64,000 nt of DNA from contig NC_086097.1 in assembly GCF_963921235.1 (NCBI RefSeq), forward strand, positions 121,522,001-121,586,000. The letters are read 5' to 3'. The translations under genes were made by a program, and so were the position numbers. Source of the DNA: Mobula hypostoma. Its lineage: Eukaryota. Position 1 is the stretch's first letter. Each line of letters starts with the position of its first letter. Under the pieces are notes generated by a model. The model was not told the DNA's origin. It saw only the letters and a list, made by a program, of their open reading frames with translations, and made no database searches. Below are positions 3,464-59,847 of this stretch, in pieces.

Positions 3464-3560
3464 TATCCTTAGTTTTGCAGAAAGACAAAGATACAATTTC
3501 TGAGGTGGCAGCCTTGCTGACTCTGCTTCTTTTTGATGAAGTAGCCAGAATGGATACTTG
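3464..3560 (+). CDS. RTTN: Rotatin internal coding exon 1 of 9 in window: (V)SLVLQKDKDTISEVAALLTLLLFDEVARMDT(W)
   Basis: Pyrimidine tract plus CAG acceptor (ttcttctcctttcag) and GTAAGA donor. Starts in phase 1; terminal TG joins G5113 to give TGG. Resembles human rotatin VSLIFHED...LLLFDEVSRMDMW (from memory). Confidence 0.9.
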
Positions 3561-3672
3561 GTAAGACTGCAGTTTGTCAGCTTAACAGCTGAAATTATTG
3601 AAGTGTTTAAAATGTAAAAGTCTAGTAAGTCTGTAGTGTAGCTCATTGTCTTGGTACACCAAATTGTGTTTA

Positions 3673-5112: not shown

Positions 5113-5169
5113 GTCTGATAGTGCTGCCACTCCAACTCCATTCAGCTTGCCTGTGGTTGTAACTCAGAG
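5113..5169 (+). CDS. RTTN: Rotatin exon 2 of 9 (57 nt): SDSAATPTPFSLPVVVTQ(R)
   Basis: ttttcttaacag acceptor, GTAAGC donor. Phase 2/2 fits both neighbours; FSLPV matches rotatin FSLPVSVFRR. Confidence 0.88.
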
Positions 5170-5384
5170 GTAAGCCTTTTTGAAAAGCACATCTTAATGT
5201 TATTTCTTTATCTAAATTAAAATATCAGCACACATTTCCATCCATCTTGATTTGGTGTGGCAGTATGTATATGGGCACAGATTGCCCGTTGCTTTAAAAA
5301 AAAGCAATATATCAGAAACTTAATCATGACAATAAAATTAAAATCTATTAAAAATAAAATTAAGATCTATTTATCCTGGAAATA

Positions 5385-7561: not shown

Positions 7562-7820
7562 TGAGACACAAGACTGCAAATAATGGAATCTGGAGCAACA
7601 CAGAAACTGCTGAAGGAGCTCAATATATATGGAGGAAAATGGGCAGTCAATATTTTTGGGTCAAGACCCTTCATCTGGACTGCAAAGTGGTCAAATATTA
7701 TGGTCCTGACTTAGTCCCTTTTAAAGGTCTCAGCCTGAAACGTTGACTGGTTATTCCTCTCCATAGATGCTGCCTGACCTCCTGAGTTCTGGTTTTCCAG
7801 CCTCTGCAGAATCTCTTGTG
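7562..7820. mobile_element. Decayed head-to-head PLE terminal pair
   Basis: Minus copy at about 7562-7682 and plus copy at about 7724-7820; both resemble 223-445. Confidence 0.6.
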
Positions 7821-37056: not shown

Positions 37057-37549
37057 TGAGGCCACTTTATTAGGTATCTCCTAATTAGGGGAATGTTTAT
37101 TCTCTTCTACTGCTGTAGCCCATCCACTTCAAGGTTTAAACTGTTGTGTGTTCAGGGATGCTGTTGTATGTTACTATTGCCCTCCTGTCAGCTTGAACCA
37201 GCCGGCCTTTCTTTGACCTCTCTCATTAACGAGACATTTTCGCCCACAGAACTGCCATTGTTTTTTTTTGTTTTTTCACGCCATTCTCTGTAAATTCTAG
37301 AGACTGTTGTGCATGAAAATCCCAGATGATCAGCAGTTTTTGAGATAGTCAAACCACCAACAATCATTCCATGGTTATAGTCACTTGGATCATATTTCTT
37401 CCCCTTTCTGATGTTCTGAATAGTAACTGAACCTCCTGACCATGTTTGCACGCTTTTATGCATTTAGTTGCTGCCACGTGATTGGCTGATTATATATTTA
37501 CATTAATGAGCAAGTGTACAAGTGCACCTAATAAAGTGGCTACTGAGTG
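37057..37549 (-). mobile_element. Non-autonomous Tc1-like element, same family as 5741-6298
   Basis: TIR CTAATAAAGTGGCTACTGAGTG followed by TA; ORF 37188..37463 (GKKYDPSDYNHGMIVG..TADHLGFSCTTVSRIYREW). Confidence 0.8.
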
Positions 37550-37789
37550 TAGATTTCAGCTTAGTTTAAATTAAACCTTTATATGCAAGCAAATATTTAA
37601 AAAAGAATCATAATTTAGTGTACATGGCTTATCAAATCATACATTATAGTAAGTTCATTTCAATATAAATTTAGATTGTATAGTGATATGGTAACTTATT
37701 AGAACTTATCCTCACCAATGAGACAAGATTTTCTAAAACAGTAAATGCATTCAGTTAACTATTAGTTCCACATGATGTATATTATAATA

Positions 37790-40098: not shown

Positions 40099-43000
40099 AC
40101 AGAGAAAATAGGTGCAGGAGTAGGCCATTCGGCCCTTCGAGCCTGCACCGCCATTCAGTATGATCATGGCTGATCATCCAACTCAGAACCCTGTACCAGC
40201 CTTCCCTCCATACCCCCTGATCCCTTCAGCCACAAGGGCCATATCTAACTCCCTCTTAAATATAGCCAATGAACTGGCCTCAACTGTTTCCTGTGGCAGA
40301 GAATTCCACAGATTCAGCACTCTCTGTGTGAAGAAGTTTTTCCTAATCTCGGTCCAAAAAGGCTTCGCCTTTATCCTCAGACTGTGACCCCTCGTTCTGA
40401 ACTTCCCCAACATCAGGAACAATCTTCCTGCATCTAGCCTGTCCAATCCCTTGAGGATTTTATACGTTTCAATCAGATCCCCCCTCAATCTTCTAAATTC
40501 CAGCGAGTATAAGCCTAGTTCATCCAGTCTTTTATCATATGTAAGTGGTGCCATCCCAGGAATCAATCTGGTGAACCTTCTTTGTACTCCCTCTATGGCA
40601 AGGATGTCTTTCCTCAGATTAGGGGACCAAAACTGCACACAGTACTCCAGGTGTGGTCTCACCAAGGCTTTGTACAACTGCAGTAGTACCTCCCTGCTCC
40701 TGTACTTGAATCCTCTTGCTATAAATGCTAGCATACCATTCGCCTTTTTCACCACCTGCTGTACCTGCATGCCCACTTTCAATGACTGGTGTATAATGAC
40801 ACCCAGGTCTCGTTGCACCTCCCCTTTTCCTAATCAGCCACCATTCAGATAATAATCTGTTTTCCTGTTTTTGCCACCAAAGTGGATAACTTCACATTTA
40901 TCCACATTAAATTGCATCTGCCATGAACTTGCCCACTCACCTAACCTATCCAAGTCACCCTGCATCCTCTTAGCATCCTCCTCACAGCTAACACTGCCGC
41001 CCAGCTTCGTGTCATCTGCAAACTTGGAGATGCTGCATTTAATTCCCTCATCCAAGTCATTAATATATATTGTAAACATCTGGGGTCCCAGCACTGAGCC
41101 TTGCGGTACCCCACTAGTCACTGCCTGCCATTCTGAAAAGGTCCCGTTTATTCCCACTCTTTGCTTCCTGTCTGCCAACCAATTCTCTATCCACATCAAT
41201 ACCTTACTCCCAATACCCTGTGCTTTAAGTTTGCACACTAATCTCCTGTGCGGGACCTTGTCAAAAGCCTTTTGAAAATCTAAATATACCACATCCACTG
41301 GTTCTCCCCTATCCACTCTACTAGTTACATCCTCAAAAAATTCTATGAGATTCGTCAGACATGATTTTCCTTTCACAAATCCATGCTGACTTTGTCTGAT
41401 GATTTCACCGCTTTCCAAATGTGCTGTTATCACGTCTTTGATAACTGACTCTAGCAGTTTCTCCACCACCGATGTTAGGCTAACCGGTCTTTAATTCCCT
41501 GGTTTCTCTGTCCCTCCTTTTTTAAAAAGTGGGGTTACATTAGCCACCCTCCAATCCTCAGGAACTAGTCCAGAATCTAAAGAGTTTTAAAAAATTATCA
41601 CTAATGCATCCACTATTTCTTGGGCTACTTCCTTAAGCACTCTGGGATGCAGACCATCTGGCCCTGGGGATTTATCTGCCTTTAATCCCTTCAAATTACC
41701 TAACACCACTTCCCTACTAATATGTATTTCCCTCAGTTCCTCCATCTCTCTGGACCCTCTGTCCCCTACTATTTCCGGAAGATTATTTATGTTCTCCTTA
41801 GTGAAGACAGAACCAAAGTAATTATTCAATTGGTCTGCCATGTCCTTGCTCCCCATAATCAATTCACCTGTTTCTGTCTGTAGGGGACCTACATTTGTCT
41901 TAAGCAATCTTTTTCTTTTCACATATCTAGAAAAGCTTTTACAGTCAGTTTTTATGTTCCCTGTCAGTTTTCTCTCATAATCTTTTTTCCCTTTCCTAAT
42001 TAAGCCCTTTGTCCTCCTCTGCTGAACTCTGAATTTCTCCCAGTCCTCAGGTGAGCCACTTTTTCTGGCTAATTTGTATGCTTCTTCTTTGGAATTGATA
42101 CTATCCCTAATTTCCCTTGTCAGCCACGGGTGCACTACCTTCCTTGATTTATTCTTTTGCCAAACTGGGATGAACAATTGTTGTAGTTCATCCATGCGAT
42201 CTTTAAATGCTTGCCATTGCATATCCACTCTGTCAACCCTTTAAGTGTCATTTGCCAGTCTATCTTAGCTAATTCACGTCTCATACCTTCAAAGTTACCC
42301 TTCTTTAAGTTCAGAACCTTTGTTTCTGAATTAACTATGTCACTCTCCATCTTAATGAAGAATTCCACCATATTATGGTCACTCTTACCCAAGGGGCCTC
42401 TCACGACAAGATTGCTAATTAACCCTTCCTCATTGCTCAATACCCAGTCTAGAATAGCCTGTTCTCTAGTTGGTTCCTCGACATGTTGATTCAAAAAAAC
42501 CATCCCGCATACATTCCAAGAAATCCTCTTCCTCAGCACCCTTACCAATTTGGTTCACCCAATCTACATGTAGATTGAAGTCACCCATTATAACTGCTGT
42601 TCTTTTATTGCACACATTTCTAATTTCCTGTTTAATGCCATCCTCAACCTCATTACTACTGTTAGGTGGCCTGTACACAACTCCCACCAGCGTTTTCTGC
42701 CCCTTAGTGTTATGCAGCTCTACCCATATCGATTCCACATCCTCCCGGCTTATGTCCTTCCTTTCTATTGCGTTAATCTCCTCTCTAACCTGCAACACCA
42801 CCCCACCTCCTTTTCTTTCATGTCTATCCCTCCTGAATATTGAATATCCCTGAATGTTGAGCTCCCATCCTTGGTCACCCTGGAGCCATGTCTCTGTGAT
42901 CCCAACTATATCATATTCATTAATAACAATCTGCACTTTTAATTCATCCACCTTGTTACGAATGCTCCTTGCATTGACACACAAAGCCTTCAGGCGCTCT

Positions 43001-44204
43001 TTTACAACTCTCTTAGCCCTTATACAATTATGTTGAAAAGTGGCCTTTTTTGATGCTTGCCCTGGATTTCTCGGCCTGCCACTTCTACTTTTCACTTACT
43101 ACTTTTTGCTTCTACCCTCATTGTACACCCCTCTGTCTCTCTGCACTGGTTCCCATCCCCCTGTTGTGAACTAACCTCCTCTCGCCTAGCCTCTTTAATT
43201 TGATTCCCACCCCACAACCATTCTAGTTTAAAGTCACCTCAGTAGCCCTTGCTAATCTCCCTGCCAGGATATTGGTCCCCCTAGGATTCAAGTGTAACCC
43301 GTCCTTTTTGTACAGGTCACGCCTGTGCCAAAAGAGGTCCCAATGATCCAAAAACTTGCATCCCTGCCCCCTGCTCCAATCCCTCAGCCATCCATTTATC
43401 CTCCACCTCATTGCATTCCTACTCTCATTGTCGCGTGGCACAGGCAGTAATCCTGAGATTACTACCTTTGCGGTCCTTTTTCTCAACTCCCTTCCTAGCT
43501 CCCTATATTTCCCTTCCAGGACCTCTTCCCTTTTCCTACCTATGTCATTGGTACCTATATGTACCATGACCTCCGGCTCCTCACGCTCCCACTTCAGGAT
43601 ATCTTGGACACAATCAGAAATATCCCGGACCCTGGCACCAGGGAGGCAAACTACCATCTGGGTCTCTGGACTGCGTCCACAGAATTGCCTATCTGACCCC
43701 CTTACTATCGAGTCCCCTATTACATCTGCCCTCCTCTTCCGTTCCCTACCCTTCTGAGCTACAGGGCCGGACTCTGTGCCGGAGGCACGGGCACTGTCGC
43801 TTCCCCCAGGTAAGCTGTCCCCCCCCCCCCAACACTACTCAAATAGGAGTACCTATTGTCAAGGGGCACAGCCACTGGGATACTCTCTATTACCTGACTC
43901 TTCCCCTTCCCCCTCCTAGCCGTGACCCACTGGTCTGCCTCCCGTGGCCCCGGTGTGACCACCTGCCTGTAACTCCTATCTATCAACTCCTCACTCTCCC
44001 TGACCAGATGAAGGTCATCGAGCTGCAGCTCCAGTTCCCTAACGGGGTCCCTTAGGAGCTGCATCTCAGCGCAGCTGGCGCAGATGTGGACATTCGGGAG
44101 GCTTGGAGACTCCCACATCCGGCACCGAGAACAACAAACTGCCCTCACACTCAAACTGGCCCTCTCCTCAAATAACAACAAAAAAAAAAGAATGAATACC
44201 AAAC

Positions 44205-44985
44205 GCTACACATGCCCTTACACTTCCTCCCTTACCACCATTCAGGGCCCCAAACAGTCCTTCCAGGTGAGGCATCACTTCACCTGTGAGTCGACTGGGG
44301 TGATATACTGCGTCCGGTGCTCCCGATGTGGCCTTTTATATATTGGTGAGACGCGACGCAGACTGGGAGACCGCTTTGCTGAACATCTACGCTCTGTCCG
44401 CCAGAGAAAGCAGGATCTCCCAGTGGCCACACATTTTAATTCCACATCCCATTCCCATTCTGACATGTCTATCCACGGCCTCCTCTACTGTAAAGATGAA
44501 GCCACACTCAGGTTGGAGGAACAACACCTTATATTCCGTATGGGTGGCCTCCAACCTGATGGCATGAACATTGACTTCTCTAACTTCCGCTAGGCCCCAC
44601 CTCCCCCTCGTACCCCATCTGTTACTCTTTTTTATGCACACATTCTTTCTCTCACTCTCCTTTTTCTCCCTCTGTCCCTCTGAATATACCTCTTGCCCAT
44701 CCTCTGGGTCACTCCCCCCCCCCCGTCTTTCTTCCCGGACCTCCTGTCCCATGATCCTCTCGTATCCCCTTCTGCCTATCACCTGTCCAGCTCTCGGCTC
44801 CATCCCTCCCCCTCCTGTCTTCTCCTATCATTTTGCATCTCCCCCTCCCCCTCCAGCTTTCAAATCCCTTACTCACTCTTCCTTCAGTTAGTCCTGACGA
44901 AGGGTCTCGGCCTGAAACGTCGACTGCGCCTCTTCCTATAGATGCTGCCTGGCCTGCTGCGTTCACCAGCAACTTTGATGTATGT
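44205..44985 (+). mobile_element. Young 5'-truncated PLE (GIY-YIG endonuclease plus terminal repeat) inserted in the CR1 5' region
   Basis: VIYCVRCSRCGLLYIGETRRRLGDRFAEH...EQHLIF..GMN; perfect 8-bp TSD taccaaac at 44197-44204/44986-44993. Confidence 0.93.
44889..44926 (+). ncRNA. Minimal type I hammerhead ribozyme motif (PLE-type), intact
   Basis: UAGUC-CUGACGA-AGG(GUCUCGG)CCU-GAA-ACGU-C-GACUG. Helix I UAGUC/GACUG, predicted cleavage after C44921. Confidence 0.78.
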
Positions 44986-45839
44986 TACCAAACCTTCCTC
45001 GCCTTGCCCTTTTCCGCCTAAGCCCGGTGAGCTGAAGCCCTTAAGCCTTCACTCTGCTCCCAGCTCACTCCGCAGCCCACAAACTATGCTGCCGGCTGTA
45101 TGAGGCTCTGTTCCTTTTAAATCTTCCGCGCTTCACTGCCCGACGTCACACACCTGCGCAGTCCTGCCTCTCTGAACGCCGATGGAAAAAAAAATGAAAA
45201 ATTCAAAAATGTTTTCCTCCGCACTCCCGCTCCGCTTCTCAGACTTCCTTCTTCGAAGGGTCTGCTCTGTGTTTTATCGCTAGGTCAGTAAAATAAACTA
45301 AACAAATAGTATGGTAGTTTCAGCATCATGCACGCCTTGCTTGGTGTTTGACTTTCCTGTTGCATATTCTGCCGCCTTTGTGCATGTGTGCACATTGCAT
45401 GCGTGGCAGTACACGTTTGTAAATTTCAATGTGCATTCTGCATGTGACAAGGCAGTGTCACATTCCTCAGTTTTATTCTGCATTTTAAACACGTTGTGTC
45501 TGCCATTAAATTGAGTTTCCAGTCAAAGAGTTAGGAAGAAAAAAAATCATGGTATGTTGGGATTTGATTCTATGCCTTCCTTAATTGAAACAGAGTTACG
45601 ATAAGGAACACAAAAGCAATGAGGAATTTTGCAGACGGAGTTTCAGTGGTAAATGCTTTTAGGTATATTAATGTAAAATACCAGGTAAAGAAGCTGAGAT
45701 CATTCAGGAAAAACTTAGTGACAGTAGTTGATTTAGCTGCAAAATTTAGAAAATTGAAATATTATCTGAAGAATGTGAGGACATTTAATACTGTGATGAT
45801 AAGGACGTTTGGAAAAAGTGCTGGAGAACACTTCGCTTT

Positions 45840-46135: not shown

Positions 46136-46210
46136 CCACATTCCTGTGATGCTGGCTGAATAAGAAGTAGGCAGAATAATGAAGAGTGCAGATGATGGTA
46201 GAATGGTATA

Positions 46211-47752
46211 CAGTGCCTTGTAGAAGTATTCAGCTCCCACAACTACTTTCACTTTTTTATTGTATCATTTTCTAAATTTAAAATACACTGAAGTAGGAAT
46301 TCTTTGAGCTAATCTACAAAACATTGTGCATCATGTCAAATCAAAAGAAAAATTCCAAAACTTGCCAACAATTTACAAAAAATTTAAAAACCAAAACTGT
46401 GAGGCTAAAGAAGTATTCATCCCCTTTGTAATTACTACACTAACTTTCTTCAGATGCAATAATTTACCTTGCCAAATCACCTAATTTGTTAATTTGCTGA
46501 TGTAGGAAATTGGAGGATCACTTGTTTGCAATGAATTCATAAGAATAAATACTCCCTCTCTCTGCAAGGTCCATCAGTATGGTAGATTTTCAACGGACCA
46601 AACCAAAATGAAGACAAAAGAGTATTCAAGCAAAGTCAGGGAAATGATAATACAAAACCGAATCTGGGGAAGGATACAGATCATCTCAAAGCACTCATCA
46701 TACCTCAGAGCTCAGTGTAGTCCATTGTGAGAAAGTATGAAACCACAGCCACACTGCCCAGGTCAGCCTGCCCCTCTAAACTTAGTTGCCAAAGAAGAAA
46801 GACACTTGTAAGAAAGGCTACTGTGACAGCTCTGAGTGAGCTGCAGAAGTCAGTAGGTGCAACTGGAGATGAAGTTCATGACTCCACAATCTCTAGGGCC
46901 TTGTACAAAAAGGGTATTGATGGCAGAGTGTCAAGGAAGAAGCCCTGGCTTTAAAGAAAAAAGCATATCCCTGCCCATAAAGACTTTGCGAAGTGACACT
47001 TAGAAGGTGCTGTAAAGATGTGGAAGAAGGTCTTGCACTCAGAATAAGCGGTACATGTAGCATAAATGTAATACTGTGCATCAGCCAGGTAACACTATCC
47101 CTACAGTCCCTATGGTGGAGGTAGCATCATGCTATGGGGATGCTTTTCAGCAGTAGGTACTGGAAATCTGGTCAGGATTAATGGGAAGATGAAGGCAGCT
47201 AAATACGGAGAGATCCTGGACAAAAAACTGCTTGTCTCTGCTAGAAATCTTAAACTGGGGAGGGAGTTCGTCATTCTGCAGGACAATAACCCAAAACACA
47301 CTGCCAGAACAATCATGAGGTGGCTTCAAATGAAGAAAATTGATATTCTTTATTGGCTCAGTAAGAGTCCTGACCTTAACCTGATCAAACATCTCTACCA
47401 AGACATCAAGGTTGCTGTCCACTGCTGACTCCTAACCTGGCACAACTTGAGCTATTTTTCAGAGGAATGGGCAATGCTTGCTCCATCACTTTGTGAAAAG
47501 CTAATAGAGACATTGTGTTAATAGAGAGTTGGTTCATCTAAGTACTGAGCAAAGGAGGATGAATACTTGTAAAATGCTGACATTTCAGTTTTTCATGCTT
47601 CACTATTTTCCCTGATTATTGGGCTCTATTTTGAAATAAGGAACATGGCATTCATAAATAAAAATTCTCAGTTAAATTGATCAAAATCCTTGGTTGTAAT
47701 ATTCATTTATGTAAATAAAGGGTTGGGGGCTAAATACTTTCATAAGGCACTG
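46211..47752 (+). mobile_element. Tc1-family DNA transposon (IR/DR type), transposase pseudogene
   Basis: TA flanks at 46209-46210 and 47753-47754; TIR CAGTGCCTT..AAGTATT; inner repeats at about 46409-46428 and 47550-47569. Transposase remnants SRKKPWL, GGGSIMLWGCFS, QDNNPKH, SPDLNLIK. Confidence 0.92.
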
Positions 47753-47811
47753 TATGTAGGAACATAGAGCTCTAAGAAAAGAAATGTCCACAATTAACAA
47801 AAGACTCTGAT

Positions 47812-48262
47812 AAACAGACTAAATGCTGAGGAACTCAGTGGGTCATGCAGCATCTTCAGAGAGGAATAAACAGTCAATGTTTCAGGCTGAGATCCTTCAC
47901 CAGGACTGGAAAGGATTGAGGAAGAAGCCAGAATAAGATGGTGGGGGAGGGGAAGCAGTAAAAGCTGGCTAGCGATAGCTGAGACCTGTTGAGGGGGAAG
48001 GTGGGTGGCTGAGGTCAAGGGGTTGAATTGAGAAGCTGGGAGATTATAAGTGGAAGAGGTAAAGGGGCTGAAGAAGAAGAAATTTGATAAGAGAGGACAG
48101 TGGGCCATGGAAGAAAGGGAAGGAGGAACGCCAGAGGGATGTGATAGGCAGATGAGGCTAAGAGAAGGGGTTAGAGGGGAGCCAGAGTTGTGAATAGAAA
48201 AAGAGAAGGGGGAGGTGGAGAAATCACCAAAATTTAGAGATATTGATCTTTATGCCATCAGA
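47812..48262 (-). mobile_element. PLE terminal-repeat fragment
   Basis: Similar to 18750-19140; decayed hammerhead cagtcctggtgaaggatctcagcctgaaacattgactg on the minus strand. Confidence 0.7.
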
Positions 48263-48563
48263 TTAGCAAAGACTAATGAGGTGATTTGCAGATAGGTTAT
48301 TAAAATTTAGGAGGTTAATTTGGATGTCAAAAATGAAGAATCATGATTGCCAGCAGGTTCCAATTTTATACTGAAGCACCAAGATTTTGAATAATTCAGA
48401 TAGATAATATGATATGCAATAAATATAAGAGACAAATAGGGAAATGAAGAACGTATTTCAGAAGATAAGTAACCTGGTTGTTACCTGTACAGGAAACAAT
48501 ATCCTGTATTTGGGGGAAAAAAAAGCAGTGCTACTTTTTTTTAAAAAAAGTGCATGGAAATTG

Positions 48564-59351: not shown

Positions 59352-59462
59352 GATTGGATATCCATGTGGTCTTTGGTCTATGAACGTAACAATGAGGATC
59401 ATGTAGCTCCACGATTGGACCTAGCCTGGCTAATTCCTCTGTGGGTTGACCGAGACCCTGAG
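59352..59462 (+). CDS. RTTN: Rotatin exon 9 of 9: DWISMWSLVYERNNEDHVAPRLDLAWLIPLWVDRDPE
   Basis: tgttttag acceptor, GTGTGT donor. LAWLIPLWVDRDPE motif; phase 0/0. Follows a 22,562-bp intron. Confidence 0.93.
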
Positions 59463-59847
59463 GTGTGTAAACTTTCTTGTACATGTCTATGTCTATCAAT
59501 TTCCTTTACTGTCTTATGGACTTCAATCAAGTAATGCCTGAACTCTCTACATTTTCAGAATAGATTTTTTTTCTTTGATCTCTTCTTGTGATCTAATCCT
59601 TTAAGTCCATGTATCATTCTGTTATATCAGTGCTGCAGTCCTTTTAAGATCAACCTTTTCTTTCTAAGGTAAGATACTTGCAGCATTCCTGGTGTGGCCT
59701 AACAAGGGCTTTGTACAGTAGTACAAAACATGACTTCTGTTTCTCTAGATATCAAGGCAGCATTTTTATCCTGACTATGGGTTTTTAATAGACTCCAGAG
59801 TTTCTTTAGAACAACGCTATTTGTGGCTTTTATTATTGCATCAGTAT

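Follow-up and report, generated by a model that had tools for sequence, protein, structure and literature searches.

A minimal hammerhead motif in a young, abundant Penelope-like family of Mobula hypostoma, probably serving the element's own copying

Penelope-like elements (PLEs) carry minimal hammerhead ribozymes (min-HHRs) of type I with a helix I of 4-5 bp, one additional nucleotide that separates position 9 from 10.1, a palindrome at 15.2-16.2 and no helix III, and the portion of the founding survey used here describes them as mostly single dispersed copies with some close inverted pairs (PMC4209133). In the same portion, single minimal motifs were inactive as monomers and dimers cleaved weakly, copies were highly variable, the 10.1-11.1 pair was G-C, and copy numbers of about 4,000 in coelacanth and 9,000 in Xenopus were called remarkable. 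For the Anolis Poseidon element PAc, the excerpted account reports a motif that cleaved only with the element's protein, an uncut RNA template, two internal reverse transcriptase (RT) start sites past the ribozyme that bound a 30-40-nt tail, and an ORF that starts inside stem II (PMC11167929). Neptune and Nematis elements have a single ORF with an RT, a CX2-5CxxC linker that is their mark and, at the C-terminus, a GIY-YIG endonuclease with two internal cysteines, and their copies include partial tandems, an inverted 5' arm, a tail and a variable target duplication, according to the passages drawn on (PMC8557442, PMC3846280). Two further groups are relevant, again from partial accounts: the amniote intronic hammerheads of RECK and C10orf118, which are conserved across species and self-cleave in vitro (PMC3088659), and non-LTR retrozymes, short non-coding tandem arrays whose type I hammerheads derive from PLEs and which occur in vertebrates, one chondrichthyan among those sampled (10.64898/2026.07.22.740005). 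For regeneration of the PLE pseudo-LTR, the part of the literature used here sees no evident mechanism (PMC2377424).

We analysed a 64-kb window of the Mobula hypostoma genome (the whole stretch of 64,000 nucleotides, contig NC_086097.1, positions 121,522,001 to 121,586,000 of the forward strand) and confirmed that positions 44889-44926 form a complete, intact hammerhead motif of the kind already known from PLEs. Its parts are these:

44889..44926, + strand: minimal type I hammerhead motif (sequence reading, pattern scan and folding)
44889-93 and 44922-26, + strand: helix I, UAGUC/GACUG (read from the sequence)
44894-900, + strand: C3-A9 core box, CUGACGA (read from the sequence)
44901, + strand: extra A between core box and helix II (read from the sequence)
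44902-05 and 44910-13, + strand: helix II of 4 bp, GGGU/GCCU, with loop CUCG (read from the sequence)
44914-16, + strand: G12-A14, followed at 44917, + strand, by A15.1 (GAAA box)
44917-20, + strand: ACGU palindrome, followed at 44921, + strand, by C17 (GUC triplet)
44921/44922, + strand: predicted cut site, from the geometry of the motif

Each core nucleotide named in a preliminary description of this DNA (CUGACGA, GAA, A15.1 and the GUC triplet) is present, as is the helix I that it gave, and its reading of the site as a minimal PLE hammerhead with a palindromic helix III is borne out by the core boxes, the extra A44901 and the ACGU at 44917-20. The boxes CUGANGA, GAAA and UH stand in the right order, the palindrome at 15.2-16.2 comes without a monomeric helix III, an extra nucleotide separates 9 from 10.1, and helices I and II are predicted to be foldable in the isolated 38-mer with a pair probability of about 0.9. 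The description had offered two registers for helix II; the one with the extra A, GGGU/GCCU, stands (pair probability about 0.95) and the other falls away (0.02). Helix II is short compared with the surveyed motifs and closes with a G10.1-U11.1 wobble, as in most young copies of the family, where G-C is usual; G10.1-C11.1 is described as highly conserved, yet lies outside what the min-HHR descriptor requires. The pattern has three matches in the 64-kb window against 0.01 expected by chance, and the folding energy of the 38-base motif is unremarkable (z -1.24, not significant). An Rfam search of 40-50 kb with E up to 5 matched no hammerhead family, and the exact core pattern had no match in viral_contigs. 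Cleavage by this motif is predicted to require a second copy or the element's protein.

The motif lies near the 3' end of a truncated PLE copy, which is nested in the 5' region of a minus-strand LINE:

44205..44985, + strand: 5'-truncated Penelope-like element copy of 781 bp (alignment to family copies)
44205..44593, + strand: C-terminal end of the ORF, with the remaining Cys linker, the GIY-YIG endonuclease domain and the stop codon (frame and Pfam)
44594..44888, + strand: pyrimidine-rich 3'UTR, or upstream part of the pseudo-LTR
44927..44985, + strand: remainder of the copy past the ribozyme, up to the short 3' end-point (+63/64)
44982-84, + strand: candidate start codon of the next unit's ORF
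44197..44204, + strand: left target-site duplication, 8 bp
44986..44993, + strand: right target-site duplication
40183..45250, - strand: host LINE with RT, APE endonuclease and SGNH esterase frames (frames and domain matches)

A GIY-YIG ORF about 300 nt upstream, a perfect target-site duplication and a young age had all been proposed for this element, and all hold. The frame ends at 44593, 296 nt before the motif, and the fragment in the window matches Pfam PF01541 at 24.3 bits, above the cut-off of 22.6. The duplicated TACCAAAC stands at 44197-204 and 44986-993 and occurs only once in 11 of 11 other fetched copies of the host LINE, three of these empty sites carrying a 1-2-base variant of it. 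Identity to other copies of the family is 99%, the nearest fetched relative being 99.1% identical. The 8-bp duplication is shorter than the family mode of 13-15, and the optional 38-nt tail is missing. The host LINE is near-complete but split over several frames; its SGNH esterase frame is ORF1-like, and we take the element to be CR1-like by its architecture. Other copies of it are 92-93% identical in the 5' region, and some have a short tandem repeat at the 5' end.

Several other repeats lie in the window. Older decayed relatives of the PLE end (69-83% identity) are found at 47824-48264 on the minus strand and also at 7723, 9829, 12123, 12242, 12485 and 13300. Terminal inverted repeats at 46208-46239 and 47724-47755 surround broken frames that resemble a Tc1-type transposase (46208-47755). 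A hairpin at 49074-49140 matches Rfam mir-9256 at 49 bits (gathering threshold 80), and the region beside it matches 37084-37558 in inverted orientation; the hairpin is probably the end of a DNA transposon and not a microRNA.

Genome-wide, as the preliminary description had proposed to count, the exact 31-base core has 50,271 matches, with none in the reversed control, which sets this family apart from the coelacanth and Xenopus counts. In 800 kb of evenly spaced stretches we found 11 exact cores against 11.6 expected, with 107 remnants of all ages. The copies are mostly single and dispersed, with some close inverted pairs, as in the survey; they are near-identical, in contrast to the variable copies described there, with 98-100% identity across the 3' part at the best 30 loci and the C7/U11.1 form in 81 of 100 listed cores. 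Full units measure 3510-3516 bp (about 3510 bp), and in full-length elements the motif sits in both flanking repeats, at that same distance; seamless arrays reach 2.2-2.3 units. One locus, L274, has a 1043-codon open frame with an RT, a CX4CX2C linker and, C-terminally, a GIY-YIG (whole-protein Pfam matches of E 6e-5 for RT and E 0.001 for GIY-YIG, both below the curated cut-off). As in endonuclease-positive PLEs, the GIY-YIG of the family has two internal cysteines, GVIYCVRCSRCGLLYIG. The linker between RT and endonuclease reads CKRNKCYTC, and the linker pattern is common to 99 of 102 homologues with a YIG motif; a Neptune-type label rests on this linker, as the 120 listed homologue matches include no named reference proteins.

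Family copies show the partial tandems, inverted 5' arm, optional 30-40-nt tail and variable target duplication seen in Neptune and Nematis, and direct repeats of 8-20 nt flank 64 of 100 copies. The family differs from those elements in its ORF of about 1040 codons, in a proline-rich repeat that precedes the RT and in showing no sign of (TA)n targeting at the insertion site of the copy at 44205-44985. As in PAc, two probable internal RT start sites past the ribozyme bound the tail, the RNA template is uncut (or rejoined) and the ORF starts near the ribozyme; the start here apparently lies about 60 nt past the cut, in an ORF with a Cys linker of Neptune type, and not inside stem II. The flagged copy is likewise distinct from a retrozyme: a dispersed, ORF-bearing truncation with a single motif, an ORF fragment and a target duplication. 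The suggestion that the family may be uncharacterised in this lineage agrees with our literature searches, which listed no paper on it in cartilaginous fish. The motif type, the insertion architecture and the internal RT start are already published, and the footprints at the level of the family are the part worth testing. On the reverse strand of another locus, L034, the final 700 bases of the oriented sequence hold an uninterrupted 225-codon frame beside a cluster of PLE copies; it resembles, we assume, a carbonyl reductase and is possibly a processed gene copy.

Folding predictions change when neighbouring sequence is included, because of an alternative structure that exists only if upstream sequence is transcribed:

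44875..44905, + strand: predicted alternative hairpin, with upstream 3'UTR bases paired with core CUGA and GAAGGGU, loop 44888-44893 (folding prediction)

Once 60-300 nt of the natural upstream sequence are included, the probabilities of the helices are predicted to be 0.03 or less, and the 5' core box to pair upstream with a probability of 0.73-0.88 (about 0.87). Sequestration of the core as strong as this arose in 3 of 300 trials when the 60 nt were shuffled and in 0 of 300 when the last 25 nt were. With no upstream sequence and downstream sequence added, the helix probability declines from about 0.9 to 0.5 (64 nt) and 0.1 (130 nt). In older subfamilies the hairpin was testable in one of 63 copies, where it was no better than in shuffles.

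The ends of the copies carry information on the templates from which they were made. We counted positions from the first base after the cut and used 100 consecutive copies that were picked by a motif at +29..+54 and lie within 3.45 Mb on a single contig, a sample in which the two arms of one insertion are not independent. The 3' ends gather at +63..+71 and at +99..+103, on either side of the tail, and fixed 3' ends past the cut site imply that the templates of motif-bearing copies were uncut, or rejoined, at the ribozyme. The 5' ends pile up about tenfold at the ribozyme's 5' edge (16 of 100 at -35..-30, or 4.1% per base against a background of 0.42%, P 3e-11) and are otherwise random, with no significant excess at the cut itself (5 at -4..+4 against 3.3 expected, P 0.24); in this count lenient realignment shifted 17 ends upstream, and 5 extended beyond the fetched sequence. 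The cluster at -35..-30 is also visible by eye in the evenly spaced sample. Its place in the window is as follows:

44887..44892, + strand: equivalent of the family's 5'-end pile-up (-35 to -30), a candidate element RNA start; the flagged copy reads through it

Counts across the genome fall over the same region, from 50,271 cores to 41,475 after a 4-base extension and, over five further bases, from an estimated 33,600 (derived from the 81 of 100 listed cores of plain form) to 26,933; matches number 25,575 for a 25-mer at -65..-41 and 85,845 for a downstream 26-mer. Such a pile-up is not described in the part of the PAc account used here (PMC11167929), and literature searches, made mostly at the level of listings and with Repbase and Dfam outside their scope, found no paper on it. 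Among 30 copies that bear an ORF start, none begins within 5 nt of the cut, 2 begin at -32 and -30, 5 downstream and 23 further upstream; 23 of the 30 long copies thus pass far beyond the 5' edge, so not all templates start at the motif.

Two other readings of the ends were tried and rejected. A raw genome-wide pattern count put 239 starts at the cut and 73 at +3, which could be taken as a footprint of cleavage. Among 30 cut-site matches inspected, however, inverted junctions accounted for 24 (a single microhomology hot spot supplied 11 of these), internal mutations for 5 and a flank-joined start for 1, whereas 15 control matches comprised 7 inverted junctions, 3 internal mutations and 5 flank-joined starts. 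The inverted cut-site junctions mostly have 1-3 bases of microhomology, judged by eye, and the raw excess is confounded by it, although room is left for a minor cut fraction among templates. Splicing at the AG before helix I was discarded as the cause of the pile-up, as copies ending there have no shared upstream exon, in a comparison with a 14-nt seed through which a very short exon could slip. At 44869-44891 a branch-point-like sequence, a pyrimidine tract and an AG do precede helix I, as at the end of the D. virilis Penelope intron, and we saw no spliced copies.

Repeats within one insertion resemble each other more than those of different insertions. In a set of 25 insertions (of 33 fetched, 32 could be mapped, and 7 of these were set aside because of mis-mapping or missing upstream overlap), the divergence between 5' and 3' repeats is 0.65% when both belong to one insertion and 0.98% when they come from different ones, and 28 of 78 minor alleles of the 5' repeat, 8 of them private, are shared with the insertion's own 3' end, against 6% with other insertions. 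This sharing implies that the repeat is recopied from the same lineage.

The flagged motif belongs to the end repeat of a young, truncated PLE; we consider it likely that it serves the element's own copying, and it is predicted to be shut in the RTTN pre-mRNA. The cycle might run as follows. The endonuclease would nick the target and the RT would start internally at +64 or +101, as it does in vitro for the anole PLE. Many element RNAs would begin at the first bases of the motif, where the RT would run off. The short cDNA could then integrate directly, giving copies of 100-135 bp; it could instead join an inverted arm, or jump by homology to the 3' repeat of the RNA, giving long copies such as 44205-44985 and seamless tandems. 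Such a template jump would supply a mechanism for regeneration of the pseudo-LTR. The motif itself is predicted to fold only at the 5' end of an RNA. An initiator-like YYAGTCC, likened here to the initiator consensus, is kept at the motif edge in old and young copies. Whether element RNA starts at the motif, or the edge instead reflects structural stalling or longer leaders, we regard as about evenly balanced.

The best-surviving alternative is that the 5'-edge pile-up records stalling or snap-back of the RT or nascent cDNA at structure on long read-through transcripts, which we rate as possible though rather unlikely. The structure would be the helix I complementarity or the upstream hairpin, whose predicted loop falls exactly at -34..-29 and coincides with the peak; many of the ends are inverted junctions with short microhomology, and most long copies pass the edge. 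The D. virilis Penelope start, moreover, precedes an intron, and the 3' end of that intron falls at helix I, in the sections consulted (PMC4209133, PMC8557442). Stalling fits less well with the ends themselves. Several copies end at -33..-31 directly against a target duplication with no inverted arm, as seen by eye, and two full-length copies start at -32 and -30. RT stops are expected at the 3' bases of stems, yet only 3 ends lie at -19..-5 and none are piled at +5, where those bases fall.

Less favoured is the circle model of Cervera and de la Pena, in which paired ribozymes release unit-length RNA from a tandem transcript, the RNA is ligated and the RT runs round it. We think this unlikely, although it has attractions: the ribozyme would look uncut in DNA copies, seamless arrays of 2.2-2.3 units occur in three of the three arrays examined, private alleles are common to 5' and 3' repeats, and the three 3' ends of one array differ by just 0.1-0.3%. 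A circle, however, has no end at -35..-30, the site of the pile-up; linear ends at the cut are without a clean excess; and in two of three arrays the 3'UTR of the last unit is of another family haplotype than the two upstream units, unlike the product of one circular template. These two arrays are L271 with L032 (contig C40) and L272 with L273 (contig C12). In the C40 array the upstream units appear to be chimeras that switch between -300 and -189, and this chimeric upstream repeat points to longer-leader RNAs or later conversion.

The fullest version of the copying cycle would be a position-dependent switch within an LTR-like round of replication. RNA would start from the first base of the ribozyme, a strong-stop cDNA of 100-135 nt would jump to the 3' repeat and regenerate the pseudo-LTR in each round, only the 5' core would be free to fold, an intramolecular dimer would cut the 3' copy alone, and the read-through intronic copies, tens of thousands in number, would be held off by the hairpin. 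Taken whole, this scheme is a long shot, and we put it no higher than the circle model.

It may also be asked whether catalysis matters to the family at all. The motif is kept relative to its flanks: of its 38 positions, 3 have another majority base in older copies than in the young family, each a pairing-neutral change, whereas the sequence directly downstream differs at 10 of 26 and 10 of 34 positions (older set of 63 copies below 86% identity, from 114 matches that reach the motif, a requirement that favours the motif somewhat). At 11.1, C is the majority base in older copies. In divergent relatives (contigs from four runs and four organisms), the similarity breaks off at both ends of helix I. 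Across 80 distant homologue loci with homologous ORFs in metagenomes, the descriptor finds 15 motifs, and none in reversed sequence. After four near-duplicates were dropped, the eleven distant motifs and the window motif were aligned; both sides have changed at 9 of 11 pairs, a statistic that is partly circular because the descriptor demands pairing, and G-U at 10.1-11.1 occurs in 3 of the 12 motifs. Palindromes among the distant homologues are ACGU, AGCU, AUAU and ACCGGU. On one metagenome contig (L292:946-992, minus strand), a hammerhead with a U3-A8 core variant stands beside a homologous PLE. The excess conservation that had been named as a check is seen, in a motif kept against its flanks and in paired helix changes among distant homologues.

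Taken together, these patterns suggest that the fold and chemistry of the hammerhead are under selection. That a promoter or protein-binding role is the main thing preserving the motif, or that it simply hitchhikes, with catalysis irrelevant to the family, seems improbable to us. Catalytic mutants left in vitro insertion unaffected in the portion of the anole account used (PMC11167929), Naiad PLEs thrive without a hammerhead in the excerpt of their description (PMC8557442), and the family has no clean cut-site footprint. Against this, the core letters are kept, both helices change pairwise in distant homologues, one of which carries the U3-A8 variant, and the palindromes vary.

Finally, we considered what the motif might do to its host gene. 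The insertion had been placed in an intron of RTTN in sense orientation, which the + strand exon matches on either side confirm:

3478-3567, + strand: RTTN exon (protein match, E 4e-8)
5114..5170, + strand: closest RTTN exon match on the upstream side (weak, E 0.25, with a GT donor at its end)
59352..59465, + strand: closest RTTN exon match on the downstream side (E 1e-13, 74% to whale-shark rotatin)

The N-terminal domain of RTTN maps 93 kb upstream on the + strand, with shark rotatins as best matches (79-80%), and exon matches run on downstream to residue 1760 of the 1783 of the reference protein. This reference rotatin may miss exons, and the 54-kb gap between exon matches may hold more than one intron. 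The 256-kb gene contains 7 intact sense motifs and 2 antisense, and 28 against 26 when all remnants are counted; sense copies show no sign of depletion or purging in RTTN, in small numbers. A copy in a gene of this size is expected because the genome holds about 50,000. Like the RECK and C10orf118 hammerheads the motif lies within a vertebrate intron, but those are conserved across species, whereas this is a member of a recent, 99%-identical repeat of 50,000 copies, with a 99.1% sister copy, 50,271 exact cores and no helix III, and it does not resemble a host-functional intronic hammerhead.

Predicted to be folded shut in the pre-mRNA, the motif at 44889-44926 is likely not to cut RTTN RNA. 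The idea in the preliminary description that it could do so, by self-cleaving alone or paired and cutting the pre-mRNA enough to matter, can be set aside as very improbable: the core is intact and in sense, six further intact sense copies lie in the gene and 8-9 bp could let abundant element RNAs act in trans, but the core is predicted to be sequestered by upstream bases, the interval from the exon match ending at 5170 to the one starting at 59352 holds no second intact sense motif (the closest being 44.5 kb away), the 10.1-11.1 pair is G-U where G-C is conserved in the survey portion used (PMC4209133) and present in 9 of 12 aligned motifs, minimal motifs were inactive as monomers in that same portion, and sense copies are not depleted. 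Two other insertions in the gene deserve mention. Further down RTTN, locus L381 (G000:C1:121671400-121677400) holds a full-length sense element and an inverted arm, with two sense motifs 3510 bp apart, and is a better candidate than the flagged copy for dimer cleavage of the pre-mRNA. In the window, 211-464 is a head-to-head mini insertion of the same family between 13-bp direct repeats (211-223 and 452-464). Its minus arm, which has the full tail, and its plus arm both begin at the 5' edge of the motif (-30, -31); the plus arm adds a second sense core to RTTN and lacks the upstream hairpin.

A single motif of this kind is ordinary, and its location in RTTN is what chance would give. The family is a different matter: it offers about 50,000 intact, near-identical cores, some five times the highest count of the founding survey, together with full-length copies whose ORF is open, and so brings statistical power to two questions that the papers call open, the role of the PLE hammerhead and the regeneration of the pseudo-LTR. 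Its footprints favour uncut templates with an end at the 5' edge of the ribozyme. Should the upstream hairpin prove real, the apparent harmlessness of sense copies in introns would be explained; and if the position-dependent switch is true, it would answer both how the pseudo-LTR is regenerated and how a vertebrate tolerates 50,000 ribozymes.
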